Positions 8,858-32,428 of a stretch of 64,000 nucleotides of DNA are shown one piece after another (the first letter of the stretch is position 1; each line of letters opens with the position of its first letter). The stretch covers positions 42,098,001 through 42,162,000 of the forward strand of contig OX597836.1 of the NCBI GenBank assembly GCA_951406725.2, written 5' to 3'. The notes beneath the pieces were generated by a model. The model was not told the origin of the DNA and did not search any database. It saw only the letters and a program-made list of their open reading frames with translations. The stretch is from Octopus vulgaris (taxonomy: Eukaryota). Position numbers and translations under genes: made by a program.

Positions 8858-9228
8858 GGTGCCTGTAGAGTGCTGCGTTTCAGGCGGCATCCGGTGCACT
8901 CTCGGCGGCCCTGGAAAATCTGGGTCCGTAACGATTCGCAGCTCTCAAGTCGGTCCATACCCACCATCCACAGTAGGTCACCAAGGTGTACAACCTCTTG
9001 TCAATGGTGCCAATGTAGGTAAGGGAAGTCGGCAAAATGGATCTGTACCTTCGGAAGAAGAATTGGCTCCGAGGACCGGGTCAGTCGGGCCGTGTGTGTC
9101 ACCACGCTCTCCTGCGGCCGCATTGCCGTTCACTCAGCGTCACGCCGCTGGGTGCCGGAACATGTCTTCATGCAAAGCGGTGGACTAGTGCGGGGCTGTA
9201 GCATTGGCGTTGGACTCGACATCCCGGG
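8858..9228 (+). pseudogene. Dispersed, diverged 28S rRNA fragment
   Basis: catccacagtaggtcaccaaggtgtacaacctc...caatgtaggtaagggaagtcggcaaaatggatctgtaccttcgg...attggctccgaggaccgggtcagtcgggc matches the LSU conserved core with multiple substitutions. Confidence 0.88.
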
Positions 9229-9463
9229 CACCTTTCTACAACTGAGTGAACTGGAGCAACATGAAATATATAAATGACATGAAACATCAGACATTTCCAT
9301 TCTTCCAGAGCATCAAACTAATCAACCTGCTTGTTGTTCCCTCACCTATCTCTGTCTTTTGGTTTCTATATGTTTTAACCGTGTGTGTGTGTACTTCTAA
9401 AATTGTCTGTATGTATACCCAACCTCTAATCTTAAAATGACTTATTTTTATATTTTCTTGCAG

Positions 9464-9617
9464 AAATTCCTCAAGACCCATGGCCCTGACTTTCAAGCTG
9501 AGATGCCAGTTGCAATACATGGCATCACCAAATGTGATTTTTGCCAGCGTCCCCCCGATATGAACTGTGGTAACCAAGAAGAGGAACTGCTTTGCTGTAA
9601 AGACTGCAACACCAAAG
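9464..9617 (+). CDS. DPF-SAM gene exon: first half of PHD1
   Basis: Acceptor ttttcttgcag|; [10 protein letters not shown]...CDFC...[12 protein letters not shown]; donor G|gtcaga (phase 1). Confidence 0.9.
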
Positions 9618-12600
9618 GTCAGATTAAATAAAAATTTTTACTGTTCAGAGACACAGACACGGAGCCTGTCGTCTGGCTCTGTATGTCCCTGTTGATGTCT
9701 TACTCTGCATCTAACTTTCTAGATAACTAACGAGATAGAGAGGTAGATTAAAAAGGGTAAAGATCCCCTTTGGTCATGAATGACCATGGGATTACATTTC
9801 TAACACCAACCACTCCGTTGTGTAGTGGGGTGCTTTTTACGTGCCACCGGCACAGGTGCCAGGGGAGGTTGGCAATGGCCACAATCGGTTGGCGCTTTTC
9901 ACGTGCCATTGGCACAGAAGCGACTTAAGGTGGCGCTGGCATCAACCACGTACAGATGGTGCTTTTTATGTGCCACTGGCACGGAAGCCAGTCAAGGTGG
10001 TGCTGGCATCGGCCACATATGGATGGTGCTTTTTAGGTGCCACCAGCACAGGTGGCACATATTGAATTATGTAAAACATTCAAAACATTAGAGAAAGAAA
10101 TTTAACTGTTTCTTGCAATACTTAAATATGTTGAGTATAAAATCTTTTCATGGATGCTTCAAATATTACTGTGGATCCTCAATTTACTATTTTGCTAGTA
10201 TGGACCCCTAAAAACTGTTTGTGGACCATCAGGTGTAATATGGACCCCTATCGAGAATCTATGCAGTCCCCCCAAAACCGTACATGGATCGCCAGGTGTC
10301 ATATGTATCCCCATTAAGAACCTCTGTGGTCCACCAAAACCTTATGTGGACCACCAGGTGTCATAGGGACCCTTTCTTAAAATCACTGTGGTCCCCACCA
10401 AAACCTTATGTGGACTGCCAGGTGTCATATGGATCCCCATTAAGAATTGCTGTGGTCCACCAAAACCTTATGTGGACCGCCAGGTGTCATAGGGACCCCC
10501 ATTAAGAATCACTGTGGTCCCCCAAAAACCTTATGTGGACCGCCAGGTGTCATAGGGAACCCGCTGAGAATCACTGTGGTCTCCACCAAAACCTTATGTG
10601 GACTGCCAGGTGTCATAGGGACCCCATTGAGAATCACTGTGGTCCCCCCAAAAACCTTATGTGGATCGCCAGGTGTCATATGGATTCCCATTAAGAACCT
10701 CTGTGGTCCACCAAAACCTTATGTGGACTGCTAGGTGTCATATAGACCCCTATTGAGAATCACTGTTCTAGAGCCACCTAGCTTGTTAGTTATTGGTTCT
10801 GTGTCTACCTATCCATATATATGTTACCAGATAACCCATTTGTATGTTTGTTTATTATGATTTTATGCTATGCTTAAGGTTCTTCCAATCAGTGTCATAT
10901 ACTATTAGGGTTGTGGGTTGCCTAACAACTGTGAACTTCCCTTCATCCATCAATGCATTCTTTGCTCTGATATTGGATTACTTAACTGTCTGGCCAATAA
11001 CGGTGGTGTGCCTCATTTCGATGTAGCTTTTATGGATCTCTTGTAATCAAGTTTATCTGTGTGTGTATGTATGTATTTATATATGTTAGGTCACTTTCGA
11101 GTGCTACTGGTAACATGTAACCCAGTACAACCTGTTGCATGGTCGGGCCGTCGGCGACTAAACCGGCAAACCCACCAAGCTTGCTTGGTGAGGAGGGTGT
11201 TTATTGGACACCCTGCGGGATGAAAAACAAACCCGTCAAAGGGCGGAGGAACTCTTGAGAGTCAACGGCCGTCCAATAAATGTCTTAAGGCTGTATCATG
11301 CGCGGGGACATAGAAATAATCAGACTGAATACCCGATCGCGCGGTTAAACCATTGGAAGTGAAGGACTCTTAGCCTTTGTTAGGGCATCCTTCTAGGAGA
11401 AGGTAACTCAGGTAACTGGGATAACTCCGACATAAAACCTGCGGCTCAGTGGTTACCGATGATGTTGACTTGTTCTTCTTTTCGGATTATGGCTGCTGTT
11501 GCTTAGTGAGTGGGATTGACTCAGTGCACAGCCTTTCCCCACTTTAAAAAAAATCTTCTTGCACAGGCATTGCACGATAACAACATTGTTCATGATTGTT
11601 GATGGTGCTGTGAGTCTCAACTGAATGGCTGGCTGTAGCCTTAAAAAGCAAATAAAAGTCATATTCGATCACAGCGCCAATAACAGTTAAGCTTCGTGCA
11701 GTGGCCATACTCAATAACGAGGGGGCAGCCATCATTTCTAGCTAGGGACCTAGAGAGATAGATAGTAAGGCAATGATACAGTAAGACAGGGTATGGGTGG
11801 AACACGCAGGTCAGAAGCTAACAGGATTAGGGTTAGTGGGAGGTAAACCTAGCGCATAAAGTGGAAATGTGAGGAAGAGAAGTACACCATACTGTTAGTT
11901 AATTAGTTAATTAGTTTGTTAATTTTTTGGTTCAAAAAGCAAAAAGCAAGGCCATGTAGGGGGACATGGAGTTATGTACAGGGAGGGTGTTCATGTAAAG
12001 AGTTCAGGCCACTTGTGGTCAAGGGAGACTTTGAACCGAGCGGTCGTCGGCATCTTTACCATCTCGTTCGGCAGCTTATTCCACGGATCCGCAACCCGGA
12101 CGGAGAAAGCCCCTCTCCTTCGATTGAGATGAAATCGTCGCAGATAGAGCTTTTCGGAATGACCCCGCAGCCGACGCTCTGGAGCAGGAGTGAAGAACAG
12201 CTCTTTTCGAGAGGTTACACTTTCCGTTTATGATGTTGTGAGCGAGAATGAGATCACCACGGCGTCGTCGTTTTTCTAGAGAATAAAGGTCGAGCGTCTT
12301 CAGCCTTTCTTCATAATATACCACACTGTGCCATACTTATACACCATAGTACTGCACTATGTACCATACTATGCCCCATACTTCACACTCCACTACTGCA
12401 CTGTACTGTAATACTGTACTTATCTTTTACAGCACACCCTTCCTGTATGAACTACACTCCAGAACTTGCTCTTCGTGCTCATCAATCACCATGGCAATGT
12501 CCCACCTGTAAGGTGTGCAGCATATGTAAAGACTCAGGAAATGTTGTGAGTTTAAAATTTTTCGTTTTTTTTCCCTTTCTCTTATTTTTACGTTTTTTTA

Positions 12601-15600
12601 TTCACTCACACCACCCCCACCCCCGTCAACCGTTACGAAACTTACCCACTCTGCTCCTCCCTCTTTCTCAAAGCCCTTACTGTTCCTCTCCTTCCTCTTT
12701 CCCCTCATTCCTTCTCAAAGCCCTTACAGGCCCTTCTCTTCTTCCACCCCTTCCTTTTCCTCCCACTCCTCCTCTTCCCCCACCCTTCCTATTTCCCAAA
12801 GCCTTTACAGTACCTCCTCTTCTCCCTCCTCCCCTTCCTACTTCACAAAGCCCTTACAGTCCCTTCTCTTCCTCCCACAATTCCTATTTCTCTTCCCCTT
12901 CCTTTTTCTCAAAGCCTTTACAGTTCCTCCCTTTCTCCCTCCTCCCCTTCTCAAAGCCCTTACTGTTCCACTTCCACTTCTTTCTCTTTCCCTCATTCCT
13001 TCTCAAAACCCTTACAAGCCCTTCTCTTCTTCCACCCCTCCTTTTCCTCCTACCCTTCCTCCTCCTCCCACCCTTCCTATTTCTCAAAGCCTTTACAGTA
13101 CCTCCTCTTCTCCCTTCTCCCTCCTCCCCTTCCTACTTCACAAAGCCCTCACAGTCCCTTCTCTTCCTCCCACCCTTCCTCGTTCTCAAAACCTTTACAG
13201 TCCCTCCTCTTTTCCCTCCTCCCCTTCTCAAAGCCCTTACAGTCCCTTCTCTTCCTCCTCCTCCTCCTTCTCCTTATCCACCTCTCCCTGTACTCCATAC
13301 TATTCAAGTTTTAAATCTCCCTCACAACCGTAAGAGCCAGAAAGAAATCTCACCCTAATCCCAGAATTAGGGTACATGTGGGATCCAAAGACCCAATCTT
13401 TCGCAAGACATCAATTGTAATCAGATTCTTATTGATAGGGGACAGGGAATTAGGTTTCAAATCTGAGACTGCCACCCATGAAAGAGCAGAAATATGACTC
13501 CAGTGCTATTCTCATTTTACCATATTGTTGTATTTGCTGTTATGAATGTGGTCGTTAAAAATTAATTAGAGTGAACTGCTGGAAGCAAAATTGATTAGCA
13601 ATAGCAGAACAACAAGCTGGCCTTCGTGTCGATGGCACGTAAAAAAACACCATTTGAACATGATCGTTACCTGCGTCGCCTTACTGGCACTTGTGCTGGT
13701 GGCACGTGAAAAACATTTGAGCGAGGTCATTGCCAGAGCCGCTGGACTGGCTCCTGTGCAGGTGGCACATAAAAAAACACCATTTGAGCGTGGCCGTTGC
13801 CAGTACAGCCTGACTGGCCCGCGTGCCGGTGGCGTGTAAAAGCACCAACTACACTCATGGAGTGGTTGGCGTTAGGAAGGGCATCCAGCTGTAGAAACAC
13901 TGCCAGATCAGACTGGAGCTTGGTGCAGTCTCCTGGCTTCCCAGACCCCGGTCGAACCATCCAACCCATGCTAGCATGGAAAACGGACGTTAAAAAAAGA
14001 AGTCCTTGGCACCTCCTGCAGTATAGTCCATCAATGATTTCCCTTTACTTTTCTCCCTGTCCTGGACTTTCCTCTCTACTTGTCACCAGCTCTGTCTACA
14101 TTTTCTCCTATCATTCTCCAGCCTACATTGGTAGAAGTTCCTATGTTTTCCACTCTTTTCTTTGTCATGGGAGTTCTCTAACTAGAGGACTGACTGGACA
14201 TGGATGTGGTGTTCTGTAGACCAAATGGTTTTGCTCCTAAGGTGGCGAGCTGGCAGAACCGTTAGCACGCTGGGTGAAATGCGTAGCCGTATTTCGTCTG
14301 CCGTTACGTTCTGATTTCAATTTCCGCCGAGGTCAACTTTGCCTTTCATCCTTTCGGGGTCGATAAATTAAGTACCAATTACGCACTGGGGTCGATGTAT
14401 TCGACTTAATCCGTTCGACTGTCCTTGTTTGTCCCCTCTGTGTTTAGCCCCTTGTGGGTAGTAAAAAAAAAAAATGGTTTTGCTCCTCGGAGTCTAGAAA
14501 GTTTTGGCAACAATTCTTCACTTTTTCTTTGCAAGTTCTTCTCATCTTCACAGCTTTGAAATTTACTTCTGTTTTTTTTTTTTTTCTCAATCTTTCTGTT
14601 GTGGATGTTGGTTTTTACAAGGTAAGGCTGAACATCACAACATTCAAACACAATTCTTCTCAATCACGGAATATTACAACCACATACTAACACAATTTCT
14701 CCCAAATATGGAATATTACACCTACGTTCTGATAGAATTCCTCCAAAATATGGACTATACCATTTTACCCAACCATGGATTATTACAGCATTGTACCTCT
14801 TACACATGGAATATTCTGACCACATTCTAACAGTTGCAACCAGCTGTTGTTTATTATGGCCACATTCTAAAACAATTCTTCCCAAATATGGAAATCAATT
14901 TTTCCCAAATATGGAAATTTACAACCATATTCTAATGCAGTTCTTCCCAAATATGGAATATTACCTTCTTTTGCATTTCATTACACACTTGGAATTATGA
15001 TCATATTCAAACACAGTTCCTCTCAGGTGTTGCATGTTACAGGCTCATTCTAACATAATTCTTCCAAAAAATGGAATATTACAACAATTTAAGAAAAAAA
15101 AAATCTTTTCAGACACAGAATTTTACATCCTCATTTTTAGACAATTCTTCACAAATGTTGAATAATAAACATTCTAAAGAACTTCCTTTCAAACATGGAA
15201 TAATTCAACCACATTCTAACATGGATCTTGTCCGACATGGAATATTACATCTTCTTTCTGAAACAATTCCCCCAAACAAACAAAAAATTATTGTAATACA
15301 GTTTTTCCCAAACGTGGAAGGTTACATGCGTATTCTGATTTCTCTTAAAACAAGGAAGTTTTCAACCCCATTCTAAAACCGTACCTCTCAAACATGGATT
15401 ATTGCAACATTCTCACACAATTCTACTCAAACTTGGAATATTACGACCACATTTTAACATAGTTCCTCCCAGAACTATAATAACCAAGCTCATTCTCATA
15501 CTGTTCTTTCCAATCATGGAATATTACAACCATTTTCTTACCAAATTCCTCTCAAACAAAGATACTACACTGACATTTGGATACAGTTCTTCTTAAACTT

Positions 15601-17194
15601 GGAATATTACGACCACATTTTAACATAGTTCCTCCCAGAACTATAATAACCAAGCTCATTCTCATACCATTCTTCCCAATCATGGAATATTACGACCATT
15701 TTCTTACAGAATTCCTCTCAAACAAGGAGTACTACACTGACATTTGGATACAGTTCTTAAACTTGGAATATTACGACCACATTTTAAAATAGTTCTTCCC
15801 AGAACTATAATAACCAAGCTCATTCTCATACCATTCTTCCCAATCATGGAATATTACAACCATTTTCTTACCAAATTCCTCTCAAACAAGGAGTACTATA
15901 CTGACATTTGGATACAGTTCTTCTTAAACATGGAATATTACAACCAAATTCTTGCATGATTCCTCCAAACATGGAATATACAACCGATTTCTAACACAGT
16001 TGTTCTGAATTATGGAATATTACATTCTGACACATTTCTTTGCATACATGGAATATTATCACCACATTCAAACATGGCTCCTATTTGGCATTGTGTATTA
16101 CAGTTTTAGTTCATTCTAACATAATTCCTCCCAAACATGGAATTTATTTCCACATCCTAGCACCATTCCTCTCAAACCTGGATTATTACAGCCACTTTCT
16201 TTCAGAATTTCTCTCAAACCTGGAATATTACCATCACATTGTAAGACATTTCCTTCAACATTGGGAAAATAATGGATTTCTTGTATACAGTGCCCAGTGC
16301 ACTTAGCATGAAACCAATGGTAGCCTTAATTTACAAATATAGAAATTATACATCTACCAATGCGGTATTGAGCACTCATTTCAACATTTGACATTTACAT
16401 GAATATATATATATATATATAATAAATCTCTGAACGAGGTATAAACAGTAATTGCACGACAATGTGAAGTATATTTGCCATCTAAATATGGCTAACCACT
16501 AAGGGTGGGTGTTACTGTAGCTTGTAGCCCCAGGAGAACATCTCCAGCTGGCTATAGGCATACTTTCTGTGCCCTGTCGGTATTTGCAAAGGGAGGTCAT
16601 TCTTCCCTCGTTAACCTAAGTGATACGCACGGACTGCAGTTTCTGGGTATTGACCCGTCATCAGCGTACGACAATCACCGGTTTTCGATGGAAGGGTCCC
16701 AATGCAAATATTTATATCCTTTTTCCTGTGATTTTTCGTGACTGATCTTGAAAAAGTATATACAAGCATTAATAAATCTCTGAACGAGGTATAGACAGTA
16801 ACTGCTCGACAATGTGAAGTATATTTACCACTTAAATGTGGCTGACCACTAAGGGTGGGTGTCACTGTAGCTTGTAGCCCCAGGAGAACATCTCCTCCAG
16901 CTGTTCGAGATCAGTGACGAAAAGTTACTGGAAAAATTATATAAGTATTTGCATTGGGACCTCCCTTCATCGAAAACCGGTGATTGTCGTACGCTGATGA
17001 CAGGTCAATACCTAGAAACTGCAGTCCGTGCGTATCACTTAGGTTGACGAGGGAAGGATGACCTCCCTTTGCAAATATCGATAGGGCACAGAAAGTGTGC
17101 CTATAGCCAGCTGGAGGAGATGTTCTCCTGGGGCTAAAAGCTACAGTAACACCCACCCTTAGTGGTTAGCCATATTGAGATGGCAAATATACCT

Positions 17195-17279
<85 letters not shown>

Positions 17280-17692
17280 CAAAATAAGCAACAAGGATAT
17301 CCAGAGGTAATGCAGTATGATCGTTTCATGCGACTCCATTTAATTGAACAGTGCAGTTGTTTCATTACATCAATTTAAAATGTAGAGCAATCTTCAGCTG
17401 CACAAAGACATAGAATTTAATTAAATTAAAACAGATGGACACATTAGTATAATTTTACCTAAAATCTCCACAAGGATAAGGAGATAGACAAAGAACATGT
17501 TTTACCAACAACATCATAGTTGTAATCACCGTATTTTGAAATTGTATGGATAATGCCATACTAAATTCTGGTGACTCAACTTAAGTACTATATTCATCTG
17601 AATCTAAATTTTTTACTATATATATGTATATTATATTAAATTAGAGACAAAACCACTATTTCCCTGTAAGTTTGGATTTATTCCCTAATATT

Positions 17693-17730
<38 letters not shown>

Positions 17731-20700
17731 TAATTATTTGAGGGAATATTAATCCTAACTTACAGGGAAAAATTCAATTTAGAAATACTAAATCAAATTT
17801 CACACAATATAATCATCATCATCATTGTTTAGCGTCCGCTTTCCATGCTAGCATGGGTTGGACGGTTTCAACTGGGGTCTGTGAAGCCAGAAGGCTGCAT
17901 CAGGCCCAGTCTGATCTGGCAATGTTTCTACGGCCGGATGCCCTTCCTAATGCCAACCACTCTGTGAGTGTAGTGGGTGCTCAGAAAAAAACCACCTTTT
18001 ATCAATACAAAATGAACAATTAAATTACACCATCTAGAAAATTAAATATAATAGAAATATTAAAATTAAAATAACAATAATATACTGATGATTAAGTAAA
18101 TTGTAAAAAAAATAATAAAAACATATATAATTGGTATATTATTGTTATTTTAATTTTAATATTTCTATTATATGTAATTTTCTAGATGGTGTAATTTAAT
18201 TGTTCATTTTGAATTGATAAAAGGTGTTTTTTTCTAATTTATATATATATATATAAATTTAAAATGAGGGTGAGAAATTTGATATTAATTTAATTAATAT
18301 CAATTTCATACCAGTGGTCCAGCATATAAAAAAACTGAAGGTTCAGTAAAATTGTATTATATACATATTAGAGGGAAACCACTATGTGGATGCGAACATC
18401 TTACGTAAGTTGAATTATGTAATATGGTGATAGTGAAACATGTATGTGAATAATCCATATTTTTATAGCTTTTCTTTTGTCTTGCTCAATTACATTTTGG
18501 TTATTTGCTGAATTTATTTCTTGAGAACATTTCTTAGTGGTAAGACCATAGCGGATCTACTTACAGCATAAGGGCATCCACATAGCGGTTTCCTTCTCAT
18601 GTCATCATCATCATCATCGTTTAACGTCCGTTCTCCATGCTAGCATGGGTTGGACGGTTGGACCGGGGATCTGGGAAGCCAGAAGGCTGCACCAGGCTCC
18701 AGTCTTATCTGGCAATGTTTCTACAGCTGGATGCCCTTCCTAACGCCAACCACTCCGTGAGTGTAGTGGGTGCTTTTTACGTGCCACCTGCACAGGTGCC
18801 AGGCGAGGCTGGCAACGGCCATATGTATATATATATTTATTTATATATATATATATGTATAAATATAAATATGAATTAGAGATGAAACCACTATTAGGCA
18901 ACTCAAACAGTGATAGACATAAGCCAAAACATAAAAAACAAAAACTATATATATATGAAATATAAAATTTAAAATTTAAATTAATAAAATTTTAAATTTA
19001 TATTTTAAAATTTTTAAACTTTAAATTTTTTTTTATTTATAACTAACCAAAAAGTATAAAAAAATTAAATTTAATCTAATATGTAATATAAACAATATAA
19101 TTGTTTTTACTTATTATATTATATTTAATTTTTTATACTTTTTTGTTAGTTATAAAAAAATTTTAAAAATTAAATGTTTAAAAATATAAAAATTTATAAA
19201 TATAAATTTCAAAATTTCAAATTTTAATAATTTAAACTTTAAATTTTATATTTTATATATATATACTCTTTTACTCTTTTACTTGTTTCAGTCATTTGAC
19301 TGCGGCCATGCTGGGGCACCACCTTTAATCAAGCAACTCGACCCCGGGACTTATTCTTTGTAAGCCCAGTACTTATTCTATCGGTCTCTTTTGCTGAACC
19401 GCTAAGTGACAGGGACATAAACACACCAGCATCGGTTGTCAAGCAATGCTAGGGGGACAAACACAGACACACAAACATACACGCACACACATATATATAT
19501 ATACGTATATACGACGGGCTTCTTTCAGTTTCCGTCTACCAAATCCACTCACAAGGCTTTGGTCGGCCCGAGGCTATAGTAGAAGACACTTGCCCAAGGT
19601 GCCACGCAGTGGGACTGAACCCGGAACCATGTGGTTGGTAAACAAGCTACTTACCACACAGCCACTCCTGCGCCTATATATTATATTAATTATATTTATT
19701 TTTTGTTATTTATGTTTTGGTTTATGTCTATCACTGTTTGAGTTGCCTAATAGTGGTTTTATCTCTAATTTAATTTATATTTATACTGTGAAATTTGATT
19801 TAATCCTAAATCTAATTTTTCCCTGTAAGTTTGGATATACTCCCTAATATTATTATTATATATATGTATATATATATATATATAATAATGGCAATAATCC
19901 TTGGATGGCATTTAGAAATATTTAATGCATCGCTACACACGTTTCCACAAATGACATGTCTCTTAAGATCACAGTTCGTATTTCTGGGATGATTACAGTG
20001 CAGTCCGTAGTATCTCTGGACATCAGGTTGATCATCTTCATGGATTCAATTCTTCAGGCGATATAACATTAAGGCGGCGTGCTGTCAGAATCGTTAGCAC
20101 GCCAGGCGAAATGCTTAGCGGTATTTCATCTGCCGCAATGTTCTGAGTTCAAATTCCGCCGAGGTCAACTTTGCCTTCCATCCTTTCGGGGTCGATTAAA
20201 TAAGTACCAGTTACACACTGGGGTCGATATAATCGACTTAATCCGTTTGTCCTTGTTTGTCCCCTCTGTGTTTAGCCCCTTGTGGGTAGGAAAGAAATAG
20301 GTATAACATAAATGGATGTACAATAGATACAACCCAAAAACCTGGTTCACTCGTCAGCATTATTAAACCATGGTCAGCATAATAGAATAGGAGCTTTATT
20401 TGCATATTCAAAACGTTTCCCCATAAACCAATTTAAAAGATAGACATGGCTGTTATGTCTGTCTTATTCCGTCTTTGGGTGAATAATAGCTAAAAACTGA
20501 CTCACCATGAAAACTTTGGTACTGCTTTAACACCAATCGCTCTGTTTAATAGGCAATGTGTGAGTGTATATATGTACATATATGTCCATATATGTGGAGG
20601 CGCAATGGCCCGGTGGTTAGGGCAGCAGACTCACTTACCCAGACTGGGCATTGTGGATGTTTATTGAGCGAAAACACCTAAAGCTCTACGAGGCTCTGGC

Positions 20701-23700
20701 AGGGGATGGTGGTGAGCCTTGCTCTACACTTTTACCACAACTTTCTCTCACTCTTTCTTCCTATTTCTGTTGTACCTGTATTTCAAAAGGGCCAGCCTTG
20801 TCACTCTCTGTGTCACGCTGAATCTCTCCAAGAACTACGTTAAAGGTACACGTGTCTGTGGAGTGCTCAGCCACTTACACGTTAATTTCACGAGCCAGCT
20901 GATCTGTTGATCAGATCAACTGGAACCCTCGTCGTCGTAACCGACAGACTGCCAACAACAACTAAAATGGTATAATTATATACCATTTTTGGATAATTAA
21001 CAATTGAAAATGCTACCACTTATTCAATGGCTGTTAGTGTTAGCAATCTAAAACATTACCACTCATTCCCTAGTGTCTTTTACTTTCAACATTTTTAATT
21101 GCTGAGATACCAACAAGCTTGTAATAACGAAGTTGGAAAGTTTAGAAAGTTTTAAAACAAAATAAATTAAATTAACCTAGCACTATGACCCGGCAACACC
21201 GGGTATACAGCTGCATGCGTGCACACATACATGCGAGTACTGTCCAAATCTCTGACCAATCACATACAGCTAGCTGGCATTCAAATGGCGTATCAAGTTT
21301 TGGGCATTTTGATTGGGTTTTGGATAGAAAATTCACAAAAAAGTCACTTCTATTGATTTTTTAATGGCTTTGCGGGGTGACTGGGGAAATGTAAAGATGT
21401 GCACGGCCACCCTTGGACAGTTTTGAATGACCATAGAAAGTACGAGCCCTCTAAATGAAAAATTGTGGATTTGTATAAAGGACACACATACAGACAGACA
21501 TTTTGTCGTTTATATATATAGAGATTTGTGGGGTGACTGGGGAAATGTAAAGATGTGCACGACCACCCTTGGATGGGTTTGAATGACCATAGAAAGTGCG
21601 AGCCCTCAAACTGAAAAATTGCGGATTTGTATACAGGACACACACACAGACAGACATTTTGCCATTTATATATATAGAGAGAGATTTCCCATACGCATAG
21701 ACACAATGCACTGAATTGTCTTTGCACCAAATTGCCAGGTTGCCCCCCCCACACACACACATGCATCATCATCATCGTTGTTCAACCGTGGTCGAGACAA
21801 TGGAATTTACTATGTTACGCTAGACTTCATGGTCCATCATAGCACTACGGAGGTCTTGTTGCTGGATGCTTGTATCCCTGGAGATTACATCAGGGTAGGA
21901 GAGTGTGCGCCTTCTGGTATCGCGAGCAGATGGCTTCCAGAGGAGAAGAGTAGAAATTACCTCTTTTTCAGCTCTACAGCAATGTCCAGCAAACTGGACT
22001 CTTCTACCTTTCACAAGAGATGATACAGGTGGTAGTTTCCCATATATTTGTACTTTGGTTGGATGACGCTTCCACGAGAGATTTTGAGCTCTCATAAGGA
22101 GGCGAGTGTAAGTTCCATCCGACCGCCTCTCATGCATAGAGTCTGTAATGATGTTGTATTGTTCAATTATGTTGCAGCCTGCAATGTTAATCTGTGATTC
22201 TTGTGACAAAGGCTTCCACGTTCAGTGTTTGTACTCACCCCTGGAGAAAAGTCCTTCAGGTAAGTAAGCTAACCTTCATTTAAAAAAAATTCCATTGCTT
22301 TTCAGATACATTTTCAATGTTTGCTTGTCAACATATTAGTTTTCTTGTTGCGGTGAGCCGGGCGAAATGCATAGCCGTATGTGATTGCAACTAGAAAGTT
22401 ACTCTCCGAAGGCAGTGAGTTGGCAGAAATGTTAGCACACTGGGCAAAATGCTTAGCAGTATTTCGGAGTTCAAATTCCACCTAGGTCGACTTTGCCTTT
22501 CATCCTTTCAGGGTTGATTAAATAAGTACCAGTTATGCACTGGGGTCGATATAATCGACTTAATCCGTTTGTCTGTCCTTGTTTGCCCTCTCTGTGTTTA
22601 GCTCCTTGTGGGTAGTAAAGGAATATATTAGTTTTCTTGTTGCAGTACCATTCAGTGAAAGCACACGGCTCAATGGTTAGAGTGTCAGACTCACAATCAC
22701 AAGGTAGTGAGTTCAATTTGCAGACTGGACTGTGTTGTGTTCTTGAGCAAGGCACTTTATTTCACGTTGCCTCAGTTCACTCAGCTGTAGAAATGAGTTG
22801 CGATGTCACTGGCGCCAAGCTGTATCGGCCCCTTTGCCCTTCCCTTGGATAACAATGGTGGCGTGGAGAAGGGAGGCTGGTATGCATGGGCGACTGCTGG
22901 TCTTCCATAAACAACCTTGCTTGGAATTGTGCCTCCGAGGGTAACTTTATTATTTCTTTACTGCCCACAAGGGGCTACACACAGAGGGGACAAACAAGGA
23001 CAAACAAACAGATTAAGTCGATTATATCGACCCCAGTGCGTAACTGGTACTTATTTAATCAACCCCGAAAGGATGAATTTGAACTCGGAACATAGCAGCA
23101 GACGAAATACTGCTAAGCATTTTGCCCGGCGTGCTAACGTTTCTGCCATCTCGCTGCCTTCGGAGGGTAACTTTCTAGTTGCAGTCACATGGCTTTACTA
23201 GCCTTTTGTGCTGAAAATGGGCTATCTATTATGAAAACCTTTTTCCAACACAGAGATATCCATAAGTAGGATCTTTGCGGTATGAACGGCAGTTTTTAAA
23301 AATATTTTCCACATAACTAAACACTTTTAAACTTCGTATACTCGTAGAATGTGTTTATTTTCCTCTTGGCTTTATTGAGAAAATTCTATAGTTTGTAAGA
23401 TTTTTGTTGTTGTTTTTCTTCAATTTCTGCAATTTCAACCAATCAATGACGTCTATTGAGGTAAAAAAAAAACATTCTGTGCCGTATGAATATGTCCCTC
23501 GTTTAAGAAATAGATTGGGTTTATTTACATTTGTGAAGAAAAAAGATACCCTTCCCCCTAACCCTAACCCTAAAAGAGATTGAAATGCAATAGATCGATA
23601 CTAGGGTCATAATTATGGGTGACAATTTCATATGACACCGCTAGAAAAAACTGCTGTTCAAACTGAAAAGATCCCATAAGTATTTGTGGTGTAGGGATAT

Positions 23701-26253
23701 TTTGGGACACTGATAAATTTTGTTATCTACTTGGACTTCTTCGATTCTGTGCTGGATGCTCATGTAAAGAGATGGGCCAAGCTGTCAGCTTGTTTGCAAT
23801 CTAAAACTATCTACAACAGGAGGGAACTCACAAAACTGGTGGATGGAAGCATCTGTCGGTTCCGCCGACGAGGGTTCCGGTTGATCCGAATCAACGGAAC
23901 AGCCTGCTCGTGAAATTAACGTGCAAGTGGCTGAGCACTCCACAGACATGTGTACCCTTAACGTAGTTCTCGGGGATATTCAGCGTGACACAGAGAGTGA
24001 CAAGGCCGGCCCTTTGAAATACAGGTACAACAGAAACAGAAAGTAAGAGTGAGAGAAAGTTGTGGTGAAAGAGTACAGCAGGGATCACCACCATCCTCTG
24101 CCGGAGCCTCGTGGAGCTTTAGGTGTTTTCGCTCAATAAACACTCACAACGCCCGGTCTGGGAATCGAAACCGCGATCCTACGACCGCGAGTCTGCTGCC
24201 CTAACCACTGGGCCATTGCGCCTCCACTGGTAACAAAACTGGTACCTCCTGTGTGACATACAGGATAAAGTAAGGTGTGGTAAAGTTACCTTCTCGAGCC
24301 ATACCCACTCATAAGGGCCAGTTTCCTGGTTTCGTAGCGTATATATTCCCCACCTGGATGGGACACCGGTCTGTCGCAGGATGACTCACTTTTTGTCAGC
24401 TGTGTGAACTGGAACAGCATGAAATGAAGTGTTTCGCTCAAGAACACGCGTGAGCCGGTCCAGGAATCGAAACCACAATCTTACAATCATGAATCCAACA
24501 CCCTAAACACTAAGCCATGTGCCTCCCCACTCAGGATAAAGTGGTAATGATGGGATTTGAAACAAATGTTATTGCACTGAAATTCCGTGAACTTCCTGAA
24601 TAAGCTGTAGTGGGTGCTTTTATGTGCCACCGGCATGAGGGCCAGTCAGGTGGTACTGGCACCGGCCACGCTCAAATGGTGTTTTTTTTACATGCCACCT
24701 GCACAGGAGTCAATCCAGCGGCACTGGTAACGACCTCGCTCAAATGTTTTGTTCATGTACCAGTAGGGTGAAGCTGGTAATGATCACACTCAAATGGTGT
24801 TCTTTACGTGCCACTGGCATGGAAGCCAGACAGCTGCTCTGGCAGTGATCCCACTCGGATGGAGCTGTTAGTGCTCCAATGGCACAGGTGCCAGTCATCG
24901 AATTCAGTTCAATTTCGATTTCACTTGCCCCAACAGGTCTTTGCAAGCAGAGTTTAGTGTCCAATGAAGGAAAGGTATGCATAAGTGGGCTGGCTACACC
25001 CTTGGCAAAAGGCCACGGGTTATGGTCTCACTTGTCTTGCCGGGTCTTCTCACACACAGCATATTTCCAAAAGTCTCGGTCACTAGTCATTGCCTAGTTG
25101 AGGCCTAATGTTCAAAGGTCGTTAGGCCTCAACGAGGCCTAAAAACCTTCTACTCTGTCAAATGTAATGTTTATTTATTCACATTGTTTTCGACTAATCA
25201 TTTATTATCTTGTAGCGTTGAAATTTCAAAGATGTGATGTCCTATTTTCAAAACAACACTGTAGGGTAGATGTGAGGGGCAGGGCCTGGCCAGTTTAAAT
25301 ATAAAACGTGTAGTATATTTAGGTCAGATTTGGCCAAATTAAATGCTAAAGGGTTTATCTAGATATAGAAGTAGTTGATAAGGCGGCGAGCTGGCAGACA
25401 CGTTAGCGCCTCCGGGCAAAATGCTTAGCGGTATTTCGGCTGTCGTTACATTCTGAGTTCAAATTCTACCGAGGTCGACTTTGCCTTTCATCCTTTCAGG
25501 GTCAATAAATAAAGTACCAGTTACACACTGGGATCAATGTAATCGACTTAATCCGTTTGTCTGTCCTTGTTTGTCCCCTCTGTGTTTAGCCCCTTGTGGG
25601 TAGTAAAAAAATAGGTATTTCATCTGTCGTTACGTTCTGAGTTCAAATTCTTCCGAGGTCGACTTTGCCTTTCATCCTTTCGGGGTCGATAAATAAAGTA
25701 CCAGTTTCGCACTGGAGTCGATGTAATCGACTGAATCCCTTTGTCTGTCCTTGTTTGTCCCCTCTGTGTTTAGCCCCTTGTGGGCAATAAAGAAATATAT
25801 AGAAGTAGTTGATTAGCTAGGTGAATTAATTAACAGTGATGGAGGGTGTTGTGTAAATGCAGTGGCTAGAATTAGGATAGAGTGAAAAAGGTTCTGGGAA
25901 CTCTTACATCTGCTGACAAGAAGGAGAGTCTGTCTCCAAATTGTAACTAAATTACACACGTAATCAGTTGCTCAACTAATTAAGCTAATAATCAGTGTTC
26001 TATCTACTTTTTCATATTTATTGCTTAATGTAAACAACTTACTCATTACTCATTTACTTGTTTCAGTCATTTGACTGTGGCCATGCTGGAGCACCGTCTT
26101 TAGTCGAGCAAATTGACCCTAGGACTTATTCTTTGTAAGCCAAGTACTTATTCTATCAGTCTCTTTTGCCGAACCACTAAGTTAACACTAAGTAAACACA
26201 CAGCATCGGTTGTCGAGCAATGTTGGAGGAGATAAACACAACACACAAACATA

Positions 26254-26303
<50 letters not shown>

Positions 26304-28221
26304 AAATATATACACACACATATATATGATGGGCTTCTTTCAGTTTCCGTCTACCAAATCCACTCCCAAGGCTTTGGTCAGCCCGAGGCTACAGTAGAAG
26401 GCACTTACCCAAGGTGCCACGCAGTGGGACTGAACCCGGAACCATGTGGTTGGTAAACAAGCTACTTACCACACAGCCACTCCTACGCCTATAATGTAAA
26501 CAAAATCTGGTGTTTTTCTGATAAACATTTCCACTTCTGCCACTGCTTGTTCCTAATTTCGTTTCCTTTTTTCTGTTTTTCTGTTCTAACCAGGTGAGCT
26601 TGCTATTGCAGGTCATTGGGTTTGTAGTATGTGTAGCAAACAGGACATCAAGGAGAATGACAATTCCAAGCTTGTCTCCTCTTCAGAGGAATTGATGACA
26701 ATAAAAAAAGGTAAGTTGTATGTATGTACTACAACAATATTACAGTTCTTAGTGTTTTTAACAAACTTACGAAAGTGTGAAATGTATAAAATTCATACTT
26801 ATATAGCAAACAGGACAAATTATGTCAGAGTATAAGTATGTGTATATATGTATCTGCTCAGTGTGTGTGTGTGTGTATGTATGTATTGGGTTGTCCGGAA
26901 AGTTCGTGCCGATTTTTAAAGGAAAGAAAAAGGTCAATAAATACTTGCCATTACATTTTTAATCAACCAAATATGAACCATTTTGTCGCACAATGCATCT
27001 CCATCTTTCCCTTAACTTGAAAATACCCTCTTCCCAGAATTGAGGTGGTTTCATGGCAAAGAATTCATCAAGGTATCTTTTTACGTCATCCAAGGAATTG
27101 AAATTTTTACCCATAAGAGACCTGAATAAGTGGAAATCCGAAAGAGCAATATCTGGTGAATATGGAGGGTGGGGTAACACATCCCAGCCGAGCTGCAGCA
27201 ATTTTTGTCTGGTTCCCAAAGCATCAAGTGCTGAAAATGAACTTTCTTATCTTCCATTTTAAAGGGTTACAGAATTAACACAGGTTATAGGAACATAAAA
27301 CTTCTTCCACGAAAAGATAGCTTAAACTGTGCTCTAAATGGAGGTGTAGTCAAATCCTATTTTATGGACTCAATCATGTTCTAAAATAAGTCGAAATATA
27401 AGCTACTATAAATTGGCACGAACTTTCCGGACAACCCTATATATATGTGTATAAGACAGAGACAGACAGACTGATTGATAGATTTAAAGTTGTAACTGGC
27501 AGAATTGTTAGACTTTCTGGAAAAAGCCTAGCAGAATTTCATGTCTTCACATTTTGAATTCAAATTCCGCCGAGGTCGATTTTGCTTTCATCCTTTCAGG
27601 GTCAATGTGATAAGTACCAGTTGAACACTAGCATCAATGCAATCAACTTATACCTCCCTCAGAATTGCTGGCCTTGTGCCAAAATTTGAAAACAACGTGT
27701 GCGTGTGTGTACATATGATGTGCGTGTGTGTACATAGTATATGATGGCACAACTTATGGATGAGGAAATATATGATATCTTACAGTTACGTGGTGCATGT
27801 ATGTATAATAATACCTATTTATTTACTACCTACAAGGGGCTAAACACAGAGGGGACGAACAAGGACAGACAAAGGGATTAAGTCAATTACATCGACTCCA
27901 GTGCGTAACTGGTACTTAATTTATCGACCCCGAAAGGATAAGTCGACCTCGGCGGAATTTGAACTCAGAACGTAAAGACATACGAAATCTTGCTAAGCAT
28001 TTCGCCCGGCGTGCTAACGTTTCTGCCAGTTCGCCGCCTTGCATGTATGTATAATAATTACCATAAACTGACTTGTTGTTTCTCTCCCCTTTTGTATTTC
28101 TACAGAAGCATGCACTTATGGACCACCGACCCCTTCCGAGTCACCAGAACCAAATCTTACAGAGTGCGTACCTTTGTGTTTGAATATCAATTTGTCGTCG
28201 TCGTCGTCGTCGTCTTCGTTG

Positions 28222-28253
<32 letters not shown>

Positions 28254-31200
28254 GCTGATGGCGGTGGAAGTGGTGGGGAGACGGTAGAATGTCGGATTAA
28301 AGACCGTTGTATTTTGAATGGCCCTTTTTTCCTGGTCTCAATAGAGCAAGTTGTGGTGGTGGTGGTGGCGGCGGAGACAGTGACGGCAGTGGTGGCAGCT
28401 GTAAAGAAATCATTTAACTATTCTTCTTCTTCTTATTATTATTATTATTATTAATAGTTATTATTACGAAATGGTTAAATGTAATAAACATTGGTTATAA
28501 AAAGCCGAAAATGTTAGTCGATGTGCAGTTATCTCCCTTCCTCTTCTCTGTTCAAATCGTTAACTCCAAACATGCTTTGATACAGCAGACCTTTCATCAA
28601 AGGCGTTCTAACCATGACCATCGTATCTTTTTTTTTTTTTTTCAAACTTAATGTGTATTCCCTAATTTAATCTTCTCTCTCTTTTTTAAAGATGGCAGTG
28701 TTTTTGATTGGAAAGAGATTAGGTTGTAATATCCTGCATGTTGGGTATAGAGGTTCCTTTTTATAACCTCAGGGCTGGTGAAATAAGTACCAGTGACATA
28801 CTGGGGTCTGTGAAATCAACTACATCTGAAATGTATAGCCCCATGTCATATCATCATCATCATCATCATCGTTTAACGTCCGCTTTCCATGCTAGCATGG
28901 GTTGGACGATTTTGACTGAGGGCTGGCAAAGCAGAAGGCTGCACCAGGCTCCAATCTTGATCTGGCAGAGTTTCTACAGCTGGATGCCCTTCCTAACGCC
29001 AACCACTCCGAGAGTGTAGTAGGTGCTTCTTACGTGCCACCGTCACGTGGTGGTGGGGGGGCAGTCAGGTGGTACTGGCAATGACTTCGCTCGAATCCTT
29101 TTACACATGCCAGCAGCACAGGTGCCAGTAAGGCGACGTTGGTAACGATCACACTCGAATGGTGCCCTTTTACATGCCACTGGCACGGAAGCCAGTTGGC
29201 TGCTCTGGCAACGATCACGCTCGGATGGTGCTCTTGGCACCCTTCTAGCACAGGCACAGGTGCCAGTAAGGCGACACTGGTAACGATCACGCTCAAATGG
29301 TGCCCTTTAAGTGCCACTGGCACGGAGGCCGGTTAGCTGCTCTATCAATGATCACGCTCGTATGGTGCTCTTTGCAACCTGCTAGCACGGATGCCAGTCA
29401 TCAAATTTGATTTTGATTATGCTTTTGATTGATATAGATTATTGTTATGTAATACAGGAATCTTCATACTTCTTTCTCTGCCATGTGGAGGTGCGTGGTG
29501 AGAGTATTGGACTCATAATAGTAAGATAATGGTTTCGATTCCTGGACCAAGTTTTGCATTGTGTTCTTGAGCAAAACACTTCATTGCTCCAGTTCACACT
29601 CACCTGAGAAAAATGCTTATTTCCTGTCACAAACTGACATCCTGTCCAGTGGGTGTAAGTAAAAGTGCCACGGAAACCAGGAAACCAGCCCCTTGAATCT
29701 ACGTGAACTTGGAATGATCTTTATCCTTATCCTCTCTGCCATGAGAAAATAGAATGTTTTGCTGAAATTGTCCATTGACATTGTTAATACAGACACCTCC
29801 CTAAACACTATGCACTTTCTGCATAGTATTATATAATTTATTGTAATGCACTGGCATTAGGAAGGGCATCCTGACATAAAAACCCTGTCAAAACAGACCT
29901 CACTGGGGCTGATGCCACATGAAAAGCACCCAGGCCAATCTGCTCCAGTTTTTTATCCACACTCTCGGAGTGGTTGGCGTTAGGAAGGGCATCCAGCTGT
30001 AGAAACATTGCCAGATCAGACTGGGCCTGGCGCAGCATTCTGGCTTCCCAGACCCCAGTTGAAACGTCCAACCCATGCTAGCATGGAAAGCGGACGCTAA
30101 ACAGAGTGGTTGGCGTTAGGAAGGGCATCCAGCCGTAGAAACACTGCCAGATTGCCAATGATCTCTCGTGTCTATTTACGTTCGCAGTTACAATAACGCA
30201 GCATCGTACATTTACGTCTTCCGGTTTATCAAAATGAACTATGCAAAGCTATTTTATCATAAAAAGACATGCATGAGTTATTCTGCTCAAGTTAAAAAAA
30301 ATAGCTTGCGTGTGGTACAACTCAAAACACGGTATTATGCATGTAATATTAAGGTGGTGAGCTGGGAGAAATGTTAGCATGCCGGACAAAATGCTTAGCG
30401 GTATTTCATCTGTCGTTACATTCTGAGTTCAAATTCCGCCAAGGTCGACTTTGCCTTTCATCCTTTCGGGGTCGATTAAATAAGTACCAGTTACGCACTG
30501 GGGGTCGATGTAATCGACTTAATCCGTGTATCTGTCCTTGTTTGTCCCCTCTGTCTTTAGCCCCTTGTGGGTAATAAAAAAAAAACAGGTATTATGCATG
30601 TAAAGTATCCGCATGTCATTGGCCTACTGCTAGTCTCATGACTTGAACGTAACCTAAAATAGCTAAGATAACGCAAGGAACGGCGCGCGCGCCCCTCAAG
30701 AGATAAAGTACACAACAGTGAATGTAAACAAACGTCAGCTGCTAAAAAGTCGGTGATAGATGTAGGGCAGCTGTACATCGTATGTTTACGTTAACCGCGG
30801 GTAGGCAAGCAAAACTGTGACCACATATTTGCGTCAACTGTTGTTGAGAGGTTAAATGCTAATGGGTTAAATCAAAAGTTTGTGTCATAGAATGCATATA
30901 CTTCCTCTTTGCACTTTCTCAGACAGGTTATAACTGTCATGTCTTTGTCTTCATATTATTGCCTTCTTAGATTCTAGTCTTTTGCCAAAGTAAAAATTTT
31001 CAATATTATTCTTCATTTATATCCCAGAATGCAGCAAGATTTTCCAAGGAAACGTAATCTCTATGATGGACCTTACCCTGATGTCACGGACTATACTATT
31101 GAAGATGTCGTCAAATTCTTCAAGTCAAAGGGTTTTACTAAAGAAGCTTCAGCATTCAGTGAACAGGTGAGTCTTTCATTTGGAACTAAAGAATTGGCTG

Positions 31201-32428
31201 AGAGCAGCAGACTAAGCCAGTTGCCAACCTGAAACATCAGACATCAGAGCTTGTAAAAGGCACCTGTGCCCACATCACATTAGGGCACCTGTGCCAGTTC
31301 CACATAAAAAAACACCCATGCCAGTGCCACATTGAAAGACAACCTTGGTGGAATTTGAACTCAGAATGTAAAGACTGACTAAGTGCCGCTATGCGTCTTG
31401 TTCAGTGTGCTAACGGTTCTGACGGCTCCCAGCCTTATTCCCTATAAAATATGCAGCCTTGCAACACGATTATGTAAACAAGGGACAGTCAGTGCATTCT
31501 GGGTAGCTTGAGCATTGTGGTTGCCAGGGGCACATTTTTTGCCATTCAAGCAGAATCTTTGACCCATCGCCAACCTGTGTTGTCTCAGATCAATCCATGA
31601 TAAGCATAACAGATTCCACAATTGACCATACCGTCTTATTGGTTCATCATCATCATTTAACGTCCGTTTTCCACACTAGCATGGGTTGGACGGTTCGACC
31701 GGGGTCTGGTAAGCCATGGCGGCTGCACCAGGCTCCAGTCTGATCTGGCAGTGTTTCTACAGCTGGATGCCCTTCCTAACGCCAACCACTCGGTGAGTGT
31801 AGTGGGTGTTTTTTTACATACCACCGGCACAGGGGCCAGGGGAGGCTGGCAAACGGCCACGATCGGTTGGTGCTTTTTACGTGCCACTGGCACAGGGGCC
31901 AGAGGAGGCTGGCAAACGGCCACGATCGGTTCGTGCTTTTTACGTGCCACTGGCACAGGGGCCAGAGGAGGCTGGCAAACGGCCACGATCGGTTTGTGCT
32001 TTTTACATGCCACCGGCACAGGGGCCAGGGGTGGCTGGCAAACGGCCACGATCGGTTGGTGCTTTTACGTGTCACCGACACGGATGCCAGTCGGGCGGTG
32101 CTGGCATCTGCCACGTTCGGAATCAGTGATAAACGGGGCTGCATTTATTCATTTACTCACCTCTTCATCAGCCCCCTCCCTCTTCACATCATGCTTTCTA
32201 CCTTTCCTTATCCCTGTTACCACTGCGTTCCCTCCCCACCCATCCTGCTTCAATTTTACATTGTATCATTTCACTCTCTCTCTCTCTCTCTTTCAGGAAA
32301 TTGATGGCAAATCGCTGTTACTGATGAAGCGCGATGACGTACTGGTCGGTCTGCGGGACTACATCTGTTTAGGGCCGGCCCTGAAGATTTTCAAACATGT
32401 CGAGAGGTTACAGTGGGCCTCTGAATAG
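9464..32428 (+). CDS. Multi-exon chromatin-reader gene, 5'-partial: double PHD finger (KAT6A/B-like DPF) plus C-terminal SAM domain (SAMD1/SAMD13-like)
   Basis: Seven exons join in phase with GT-AG borders: 9464-9617, 12433-12545, 22178-22259, 26612-26710, 28106-28163, 31028-31166, 32297-32428 (777 nt including stop). Product: [124 protein letters not shown]...[73 protein letters not shown]. No upstream exon was found. Confidence 0.9.
10195..10770. repeat. ~59-bp minisatellite
   Basis: Repeating aaaaccttatgtggac.gccaggtgtcatagggaccccc.attaagaatcactgtggtcc. Confidence 0.9.
11087..11600 (+). mobile_element. Probable RTE-clade LINE 5' region
   Basis: GC-richer block containing ggcatccttctaggagaaggtaactc, which resembles RTE 5'UTR motifs (recalled similarity). 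Confidence 0.45.
11690..12320 (-). mobile_element. CR1-type LINE 3' fragment
   Basis: [31 protein letters not shown] is a CR1-clade ORF2 C-terminal motif. Confidence 0.82.
12433..12545 (+). CDS. DPF-SAM gene exon: end of PHD1, start of PHD2
   Basis: Acceptor cttttacag|; (A)[37 protein letters not shown]; donor |gtgagt (phase 0). Confidence 0.93.
12655..13270. repeat. Pyrimidine-rich degenerate minisatellite
   Basis: Recurrent ttctcaaagcccttacagt plus cct runs; explains the 303-aa P/L/F/S-rich ORF. Confidence 0.85.
14630..16270. repeat. Degenerate ~33-bp minisatellite with a ~165-bp higher-order repeat (about 15430-15925)
   Basis: Recurrent catggaatattacaaccacattct; three near-identical higher-order copies. 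Confidence 0.85.
16626..16670 (-). ncRNA. Minimal type I hammerhead ribozyme motif (Penelope-type)
   Basis: Reverse complement reads cgtacg-CTGATGA-c-gggt(caat)accc-a-GAAAC-tgca-GTC-cgtgcg. Confidence 0.8.
16988..17032 (+). ncRNA. Minimal type I hammerhead ribozyme motif (Penelope-type)
   Basis: cgtacg-CTGATGA-c-aggt(caat)acct-a-GAAAC-tgca-GTC-cgtgcg: stem I, stem II, short stem III with palindromic loop, GUC triplet. Confidence 0.8.
17310..17403 (-). ncRNA. Hammerhead-like motif with long stem II (one stem III mismatch)
   Basis: Reverse complement reads gtgcag-CTGAAGA-ttgc...gcat-GAAAC-gatc-ATA-ctgcat, with a 6-bp stem I and a palindromic loop. Confidence 0.55.
21177..21684 (-). mobile_element. 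Non-autonomous Helitron-like element with internal ~157-bp duplication
   Basis: Minus strand 5' tctctctctatatatataaatggc; 3' cccggtgttgccgggtcatagtgCTAG; duplicated block at about 21370-21525 and 21526-21684. Confidence 0.65.
21765..22130 (-). mobile_element. RTE/RTEX-type LINE 3' end with (GAT)n tail
   Basis: [50 protein letters not shown]...LLLWKP. Confidence 0.85.
22178..22259 (+). CDS. DPF-SAM gene exon: PHD2 core (missed by the ORF track)
   Basis: Acceptor gttgcag|; [27 protein letters not shown]; donor G|gtaagt (phase 1). Confidence 0.93.
23269..23674. mobile_element. MITE with GG...CC TIRs and 8-bp TSD (Merlin-like)
   Basis: TSD cataagta at 23261-23268 and 23675-23682; TIR ggatctttgcggtatgaacggcagtttt / aaaactgctgttcaaactgaaaagatcc; internal (CCCTAA)3. 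Confidence 0.8.
23855..24227 (-). mobile_element. tRNA-derived SINE family C (others at 20595-20960 and 61507-61870; related at 22660 and 40530)
   Basis: Head ggaggcgcaatggcccagtggttagggcag...ggtttcgattccc (A and B boxes); TSD acaaaactggt. Confidence 0.82.
25381..25796 (+). mobile_element. tRNA-derived SINE family A, copy with duplicated 3' body (others at about 1553, 7274, 14240, 20072, 22410, 30352 on +; 22950, 27815, 48475 on -)
   Basis: Head aggcggcgagctggcaga, gagttcaaattc B-box-like motif, tail gggtagtaaagaaata; 17-bp TSD atatagaagtagttgat. Confidence 0.85.
26612..26710 (+). CDS. DPF-SAM gene exon: end of PHD2 plus linker
   Basis: Acceptor ttgcag|; (G)[32 protein letters not shown]; donor G|gtaagt. 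An in-frame upstream acceptor would start the exon at 26594. Confidence 0.88.
26886..27439 (-). mobile_element. Internally deleted mariner element
   Basis: TIRs ttgggttgtccggaaagttcgtgcc / ggcacgaactttccggacaacccta with TA flanks. Transposase C-terminus [26 protein letters not shown]...[13 protein letters not shown]. Confidence 0.93.
28106..28163 (+). CDS. DPF-SAM gene exon: Pro/Ser-rich linker
   Basis: Pyrimidine tract plus tacag|; (E)[18 protein letters not shown]; donor GA|gtgcgt. Phases 1 to 2 bridge the flanking exons exactly. Confidence 0.78.
31028..31166 (+). CDS. DPF-SAM gene exon: N-terminal half of SAM
   Basis: Acceptor atcccag|; [46 protein letters not shown]; donor |gtgagt. Confidence 0.92.
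31645..32125 (-). mobile_element. SINE family D with (GAT)n tail and internal 57-bp tandem repeats (many copies, e.g. 755-1077, 3555-3750, 6225-6910, 13620-13992, 18602-18822, 28851-29420, 36948-37270, 62045-62292)
   Basis: Core tggcgttaggaagggcatccagctgtagaaa and 3' ccaacccatgctagcatggaaa..ggacgttaaacgatgatg; variable ggcacgtaaaaagcacc repeats. Confidence 0.85.
32297..32428 (+). CDS. DPF-SAM gene last coding exon: C-terminal half of SAM
   Basis: (CT)n tttcag|; [46 protein letters not shown]. Confidence 0.93.

Follow-up and report, generated by a model that had tools for sequence, protein, structure and literature searches.

A stretch of 64,000 nucleotides from Octopus vulgaris (assembly GCA_951406725.2, contig OX597836.1, forward strand, 42,098,001 to 42,162,000), called the window here, carries seven of the eight coding exons of a gene whose product combines two winged helices (WH1 and WH2), a double PHD finger (DPF) and a terminal SAM domain. 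The eight exons encode a WH1-WH2-DPF-SAM protein of 657-663 amino acids (aa) without an acetyltransferase domain. Based on the WH1, DPF and SAM trees, the gene is assigned with high confidence to the SAMD1/SAMD13 family, to which fly Lint-O likely belongs as well. The reading that we favour, and regard as reasonably probable, is that this WH1-WH2-DPF-SAM member of the family would repress genes as a scaffold bound to chromatin, in the manner of SAMD1 and fly Lint-O.

The WH1-WH2-DPF-SAM architecture is common in invertebrate databases, and a fly member with two PHD fingers and a SAM domain, Lint-O, has likely been characterised already (PMC9535798). The novelty of architecture that was raised in a first-pass annotation of the window is therefore not sustained. 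Of most interest are the series of stepwise losses in vertebrates and the family-wide change in the acyl pocket, together with an evolutionary link that is apparently unpublished. A literature search, which mostly excluded subscription papers, returned no paper on a WH1-WH2-DPF-SAM protein and none linking Lint-O to SAMD1. NCBI's CDD reportedly records that many atherin-like SAM proteins also have PHD fingers.

Gene model and junctions

The first-pass annotation proposed seven phase-compatible exons encoding tandem PHD fingers, a linker and a SAM domain followed by a stop, and this model is borne out by canonical splice sites and by identity with deposited proteins. The exons lie within 9464..32428 on the plus strand, with cag acceptors at 7/7 and gt donors at 6/6. 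Spliced by coordinates, they give 795 nt and 264 aa with no internal stop and a terminal stop after the SAM domain, and over residues 14-264 the product matches a deposited O. sinensis protein, 'atherin-like X1' (P0001), without a single difference.

Winged-helix exons had been predicted upstream of the window, and one was found by searching the genome with PF21524. The search gave four loci, on contigs C4, C29 and C9 and in an exon on the same strand 85 kb upstream. This first coding exon (G000:C23:42021293-42022489; L005:1477-2673; plus strand), modelled from the profile search and from identity with the deposited O. vulgaris protein P0398, has 399 codons (1197 nt, phase 0) and encodes both winged helices, WH2 being interrupted by ~125 aa of Asn-rich sequence, together with a basic RGRP motif. 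It joins exon 9464 in frame over an intron of 84,974 nt, the 3' end of which occupies 1..9463 of the window (plus strand), and the eight-exon product has 663 aa. Built with the acceptor at 26612, the eight-exon model has 0 mismatches in 657 against P0398, a protein of 657 aa, which places the PHD fingers and the SAM domain in one gene. P0398 is named 'histone acetyltransferase KAT6B-like', just the automatic mislabel that had been foreseen.

The remaining exons all lie on the plus strand. Exon 2 (9464..9617) encodes a basic linker and the first half of PHD1, and the intron after it interrupts the codon corresponding to MOZ G237, which is Ala here. The remainder of PHD1 and the start of PHD2 are encoded by exon 3 (12433..12545), and the PHD2 core, with the two acidic-pocket aspartates (MOZ D282 and D285), by exon 4 (22178..22259; Pfam PHD, E-value 1.5e-6). 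Exon 5 (26594..26710) holds the end of PHD2 and part of the linker, and exon 6 (28106..28163) adds linker sequence with a conserved T-P-x-x-S-P motif. The SAM domain is divided between exon 7 (31028..31166), carrying its first half, and exon 8 (32297..32428), carrying its second half with a two-residue insertion, a Cys at the position of SAMD1 R508, and the stop; the best PDB match of both is the SAMD1 SAM (E-value 2e-8 for exon 8). Pfam scans of 9464-9616 alone and 26614-26709 alone gave no match.

Exon 5 has two in-frame acceptors, 26594 and 26612, which are 6 aa apart; the former gives P0001, and the latter gives O. sinensis isoform X3 (P0397) and O. vulgaris P0398. At exon 6 a tandem acceptor was seen at 28106/28109, three bases apart. 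Because the form built with 28109 did not match the deposited 250-aa isoform X2, the one-residue difference of X2 lies elsewhere.

In 4/4 sequencing runs a contig spans the 9617-12433 junction (GT..AG); the runs were selected for containing the winged-helix exon and are only guessed to be RNA, none being recorded as such. Contigs in 3/4 runs start two bases before 9464 and carry 821, 606 and 180 further letters that do not align with the window at that point, an indirect sign of an upstream join. The junction of the winged-helix exon with exon 9464 is spanned by an Argonauta protein (P0003), by two other coleoid proteins (P0004 and P0005) and by P0398. For the five later junctions the evidence is that deposited models are identical and that the coleoid proteins P0004 and P0005, which come from short Logan contigs, run through without a break.

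A genome search with the MYST profile PF01853, in which the best candidates were scored, gave 12 matches on contigs C5, C7, C22 and C29, with 0/12 on C23, the contig of the window. A MYST search of P0398 found none, and the stop directly follows the SAM domain. As far as these searches reach, the absence of an acetyltransferase and of intervening MYST exons, as first proposed, is upheld. Octopus KAT6 proper is a separate gene on contig C29, and the C9 locus with a WH1 is read as ZMYND11-like.

Winged helices

WH1 scores 90 bits on PF21524 against a cut-off of 24.5. Its best match is SAMD1 (E-value 7e-19), followed by KAT6A (7e-8), and its structure model aligns to 6LUI with a Z of 14.6 and a root-mean-square deviation (rmsd) of 1.1. 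Nine DNA contacts of the SAMD1 winged helix are named in PMC8115922. Eight of the nine are kept in the octopus WH1 (R43, R45, K46, R48, Y87, K88, S92 and R94), and R56 is replaced by His; R45/K46 are kept in 184/185 family rows.

In WH2, one helix is followed by the Asn-rich insert and then by the remainder of the domain. It was found to score 38 bits on the family WH2 profile, and both halves are confident in the predicted model. Residues 79-282 of the model were aligned as one unit in one fold-search row, with middling values (Z 8.8, rmsd 2.2, 74 aligned); fold searches with the model of this exon are dominated by WH1 matches and barely probe WH2. The WH2 of octopus KAT6 scores 14.9 bits on the family profile, compared with at most 7.2 for the 493 reported of 500 shuffles, and a coral family member lies above the Pfam linker-histone cut-off. 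WH2 ends within the upstream exon, ~120 residues before the start of exon 9464. The first residues of the window product, which the first-pass annotation likened to the end of the second KAT6 winged helix, are thus basic linker. A search of the ESM Atlas gave family-level leads only.

Family distribution and trees

A limpet query returned 932 proteins, mostly named KAT6-like. The best 120 listed come from molluscs, annelids, brachiopods, nemerteans, hemichordates, echinoderms, amphioxus, arthropods and cnidarians, whereas sponges, placozoans and ctenophores are not represented among the top-ranked matches listed. The full WH1-WH2-PHD1-PHD2-SAM order is present in 148/396 classified proteins, with cnidarian, mollusc, arthropod and amphioxus examples. 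Seven insect proteins that NCBI names Lint-O carry WH1, PHD1, PHD2 and SAM, four of which were placed in the trees; among the family matches listed there is no Drosophila-named sequence. A second family paralog was seen in the octopus genome at C4:112489643-112549657 on the minus strand (L004, L008, L015-L017, L036 and L037). It has a WH1-DPF-SAM order, with Val at the pocket glycine and no WH2 detectable on the family profile. Several other lophotrochozoans also have two copies.

Trees were built from 50-57 hand-picked rows and 68-102 columns. In the WH1 tree, the octopus protein groups with vertebrate SAMD1/SAMD13 and the Lint-O-named insects, apart from octopus KAT6 and ZMYND11 (support 92), and the SAM tree separates the same set from Ph and L3MBTL (support 89-96). 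In the DPF tree, the family stands on one side and KAT6, d4 and PHF10 on the other with a support of 100/99; when the tree is rooted on a partial PHF10, KAT6 is the sister of the family (100/81).

Vertebrate members were drawn from a SAM-profile search of which the best 150 of 2456 matches were considered. A hagfish 'SAMD13' (P0250) combines a SAM domain with the linker motif and a degenerate double PHD, with no winged helix in that gene model, and a zebra shark SAMD13 (P0182) is WH1-WH2-SAM; each is a single database gene model. SAMD1 proteins of elephant shark, carp and lungfish have a WH2 remnant matching Pfam SAMD1_SHD (PF24971, 'SAMD1 small helical domain'), a coincidence noted in the fish SAMD1 rows P0199, P0201 and P0186; hedgehog SAMD1 and a lamprey protein are WH1-SAM only. 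The double PHD left in hagfish SAMD13, though degenerate, and the WH1-WH2 left in shark SAMD13 support a descent of SAMD1/SAMD13 from a WH1-WH2-DPF-SAM design. The suggestion that the architecture is possibly ancestral to SAMD1 gains from these intermediates and from the domain trees.

SAM domain and linker motif

The SAM domain matches SAMD1 best (E-value 4e-17), compared with 2e-5 for PHC3 and 3e-5 for L3MBTL3. Together with the SAM tree, these scores place it closer to SAMD1 than to Ph, Scm, Sfmbt or L3MBTL; a grouping with Ph, Scm or L3MBTL is rejected, and the SAMD1/SAMD13 type first assigned to this SAM is supported. All 14/14 polymer contacts of the SAMD1 SAM are identical in octopus. 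At the L3MBTL3 interface 6/7 residues are kept, the exception being R508, which is Cys. The octopus genome also contains an L3MBTL gene, which encodes three MBT repeats and a SAM domain.

The T-P-x-x-S-P (or T-P-x-S-P) motif occurs within 160 residues before the SAM domain in 86/224 rows with PHD fingers and 23/43 rows without them, compared with 1.3% in shuffles. We take it to resemble a proline-directed phosphodegron. In flies, Lint-O loses stability when L(3)mbt is missing, and its SAM domain is required for L(3)mbt binding and repression (PMC9535798).

The Cys at R508 invites an alternative that we consider unlikely, namely that this gene is a diverged coleoid paralog in which an altered SAM end-helix surface has lost L3MBTL recruitment, and which homopolymerises or else pairs with and tunes the conventional C4 paralog. 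Cys at R508 is found in 6/218 rows, all of them coleoid proteins of this clade and all with the two-residue SAM insertion. The clade is separate in the WH1, SAM and DPF trees, its pocket-lining I260 and E261 have become Pro and Thr, and the C4 copy keeps Lys at 508, though it lacks a detectable WH2. However, this copy retains all 14 residues of self-contact and six of the seven that contact L3MBTL3, and Leu stands at 508 in 31/218 rows, including Lint-O-named hymenopteran proteins, so that the position tolerates change. By analogy with SAMD1 and Lint-O, a repressor mechanism with L3MBTL seems somewhat better than an even chance for this C23 paralog.

Double PHD finger and acyl pocket

The DPF matches KAT6A best (E-value 1e-26), and in the alignment all zinc ligands and the acidic pocket D282/D285 are kept. 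The face-to-back DPF fold is seen in the predicted model of a limpet ortholog. In MOZ numbering, F211, W257 and C259 are kept and Asp is present at 210; the pocket differs from MOZ by G237 to Ala, L242 to Met, I260 to Pro and E261 to Thr. Six mammalian DPF proteins are listed in PMC8538644. A review gives G237 as the most important acyl-pocket residue, and a second structure paper was used alongside it. Among 211 family proteins with PHD1 and SAM, an alignment-based count that includes near-copies, this position is Gly in 0, Ala in 185, Val in 22, a gap in 3 and Phe in 1. The equivalent position is Gly in octopus KAT6, d4 and PHF10. Intron positions within the DPF were considered as proof of a KAT6 origin and found uninformative, as d4 shares all three and PHF10 the first two.

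The first-pass annotation described the protein as a reader of acylated H3. In its fuller form, this alternative holds that a non-catalytic reader of acylated H3K14 shares KAT6 targets, competing with KAT6 or spreading over acetylated promoters. Its appeal lies in the closeness of the DPF to KAT6A, with F211, W257, C259 and both acidic-pocket aspartates kept, and in a WH1-WH2-DPF order as in KAT6, to which the score of the octopus KAT6 WH2 on the family profile adds. Ala is also small, so that binding could persist. Against this, none of the 211 family rows has the pocket glycine, which is present in octopus KAT6, d4 and PHF10, and L242 is changed to Met. Because the glycine is replaced in 211/211 family proteins, acyl-H3 reading by this DPF is doubtful, and the PHD1 pocket would probably read acyl-K14 poorly. 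The claim is weakened accordingly, and we hold it to be improbable, a little more so than the diverged-paralog alternative.

Proposed mechanism and history

The favoured reading, a chromatin-bound repressor scaffold, can be set out in four steps. WH1 would bind unmethylated CpG, as in SAMD1. Further affinity, for nucleosomal DNA and for the unmodified N-terminus of H3, would come from WH2, the basic linker and the PHD2 acidic pocket. A head-to-tail SAM polymer would then make the binding multivalent, and the SAM end-helix surface would recruit L3MBTL through its SAM, leading to repression of the bound genes.

That the main product is instead a short DPF-SAM protein without winged helices, recruited by partners and not by DNA, is very improbable, given that the frame is open upstream of the internal Met up to the acceptor, that contigs in 3/4 of the runs (chosen for the winged-helix exon) extend 180-821 letters past it, and that the Argonauta, two other coleoid and deposited P0398 proteins span the junction. 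In its favour, exon 9464 holds the start of P0001, P0396 and P0397, an intron of 85 kb precedes it, and the description of fly Lint-O mentions PHDs and SAM only (PMC9535798).

In the history we propose, a WH1-WH2-DPF module common to KAT6 would have been joined to a SAM domain before the cnidarian-bilaterian split. Vertebrate SAMD1/SAMD13 would then have lost the DPF, later WH2, and in short SAMD13 forms WH1 too. This order of events is taken from the distribution of architectures, because the outgroups are few and long and the inner forks mostly open. A broader synthesis is offered tentatively, as possible and short of probable. The KAT6-type WH1-WH2-DPF with a polymerising SAM may be a fourth, overlooked DPF lineage that predates the cnidarian split and unites Lint-O, SAMD1 and SAMD13. 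The Gly-to-Ala change may have switched its DPF from acylated to unacylated H3K14, turning it into a repressive counterpart that mirrors KAT6 and shares its unmethylated CpG sites, with stepwise loss of DPF and WH2 in vertebrates and two specialised paralogs in coleoids.

Several points weigh against the repressor-scaffold reading and its history. All of its functional steps are inferred, and molluscan members are known from sequence alone. The winged-helix junction is not visible in the read letters, and the winged-helix exon is missing from the O. sinensis RefSeq models. The Cys at R508 lies in the L3MBTL3 interface, and the C23 paralog is fast-evolving. Most octopus CpGs are unmethylated or mosaic, so that CpG reading alone confers little specificity. 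An eight-cysteine PHD mutant of fly Lint-O still repressed, so that the PHD step may not need folded PHDs, and the paper on Lint-O, a protein of 446 aa, describes no winged helix in it (PMC9535798). The same paper doubts SAMD13 as the Lint-O ortholog, since SAMD13 lacks PHD fingers, and our link to Lint-O is drawn from the names that NCBI gives to proteins of other insects and from the paper's BLAST statement about SAMD13. The trees are of short domains with long branches and a partial PHF10 as root, and a single genome supplies their one to three outgroup rows; the hagfish DPF is a very long branch, and vertebrate SAM rows do not form one clade (2 changes).

If the reading is true, SAMD1, acting at mammalian CpG islands, and Lint-O, acting in fly ovary and brain, would be members of one ancient L3MBTL-recruiting repressor family. 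SAMD1 would not be vertebrate-specific, correcting a published statement (PMC8115922), and the Pfam 'SAMD1 small helical domain' would be a remnant of WH2. Many invertebrate 'KAT6A/B-like acetyltransferase' annotations would then describe non-catalytic proteins. The family also gives a direct test of an unmethylated-CpG reader role in sparsely methylated animals. The octopus gene alone is an ordinary, if fast-evolving, member.

Other features of the window

Two exon-like frames of a neighbouring gene were seen on the minus strand, at 50673-51002 and ~53975-54148, the first with weak, sub-cut-off TPR matches (E-value 6e-4). GC-rich intronic stretches lie at 8860-9190 and 3150-3500, which resemble fragments of large-subunit rRNA; an Rfam scan of the window gave 0 matches at gathering scores. 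Intronic repeat pieces at 11010-12320 have very high contig depth in four runs and are probably retroelement-derived. Tandem arrays occur at 58103-60416 (~490-bp units, 98-99% identity), 39280-39787 (51-bp x10), 10201-10766 (63-bp x9) and 15417-16023 (164-bp x3).

Comparison with known systems

The octopus protein resembles SAMD1/SAMD13 in its SAMD1-type WH1 with 8/9 DNA contacts, its C-terminal SAM domain with 14/14 polymer contacts and its lack of a catalytic domain. The T-P-x-x-S-P linker motif is shared with fish and shark members (23/43 PHD-less rows). Mammalian SAMD1 binds unmethylated CpG, polymerises, recruits L3MBTL and represses (PMC8115922, PMC11969672). In contrast to the octopus protein, it lacks both DPF and WH2 and has a Pro/Ala-rich disordered region, where octopus has an Asn/Ser-rich insert; mammalian SAMD13 is said to consist of a SAM domain alone. 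The octopus protein also differs by its SAM insertion and the Cys at R508.

Fly Lint-O (CG2662), a published L(3)mbt co-repressor, likewise has two PHD fingers and then a C-terminal SAM domain, and its human BLAST counterpart is SAMD13 (PMC9535798). No winged helix is described in the paper for this protein of 446 aa. Insect DPFs are long-branched and degenerate, and flies, according to the cited papers, lack a CpG-methylation landscape.

KAT6A/KAT6B (MOZ/MORF, fly Enok) share with the octopus protein the WH1-WH2-DPF order, the fold and sequence of the DPF and three DPF intron positions. They have a MYST domain, whereas the octopus protein has a SAM domain instead, a SAMD1-type WH1, Ala for Gly in the pocket and a split WH2. 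DPF1-3/d4 and PHF10, subunits of BAF/PBAF, also have a double PHD finger, and the octopus protein has Asp at MOZ 210 as in DPF1-3. Unlike it, they have no winged helix and no SAM domain, and the DPF of the octopus family stands on its own branch.

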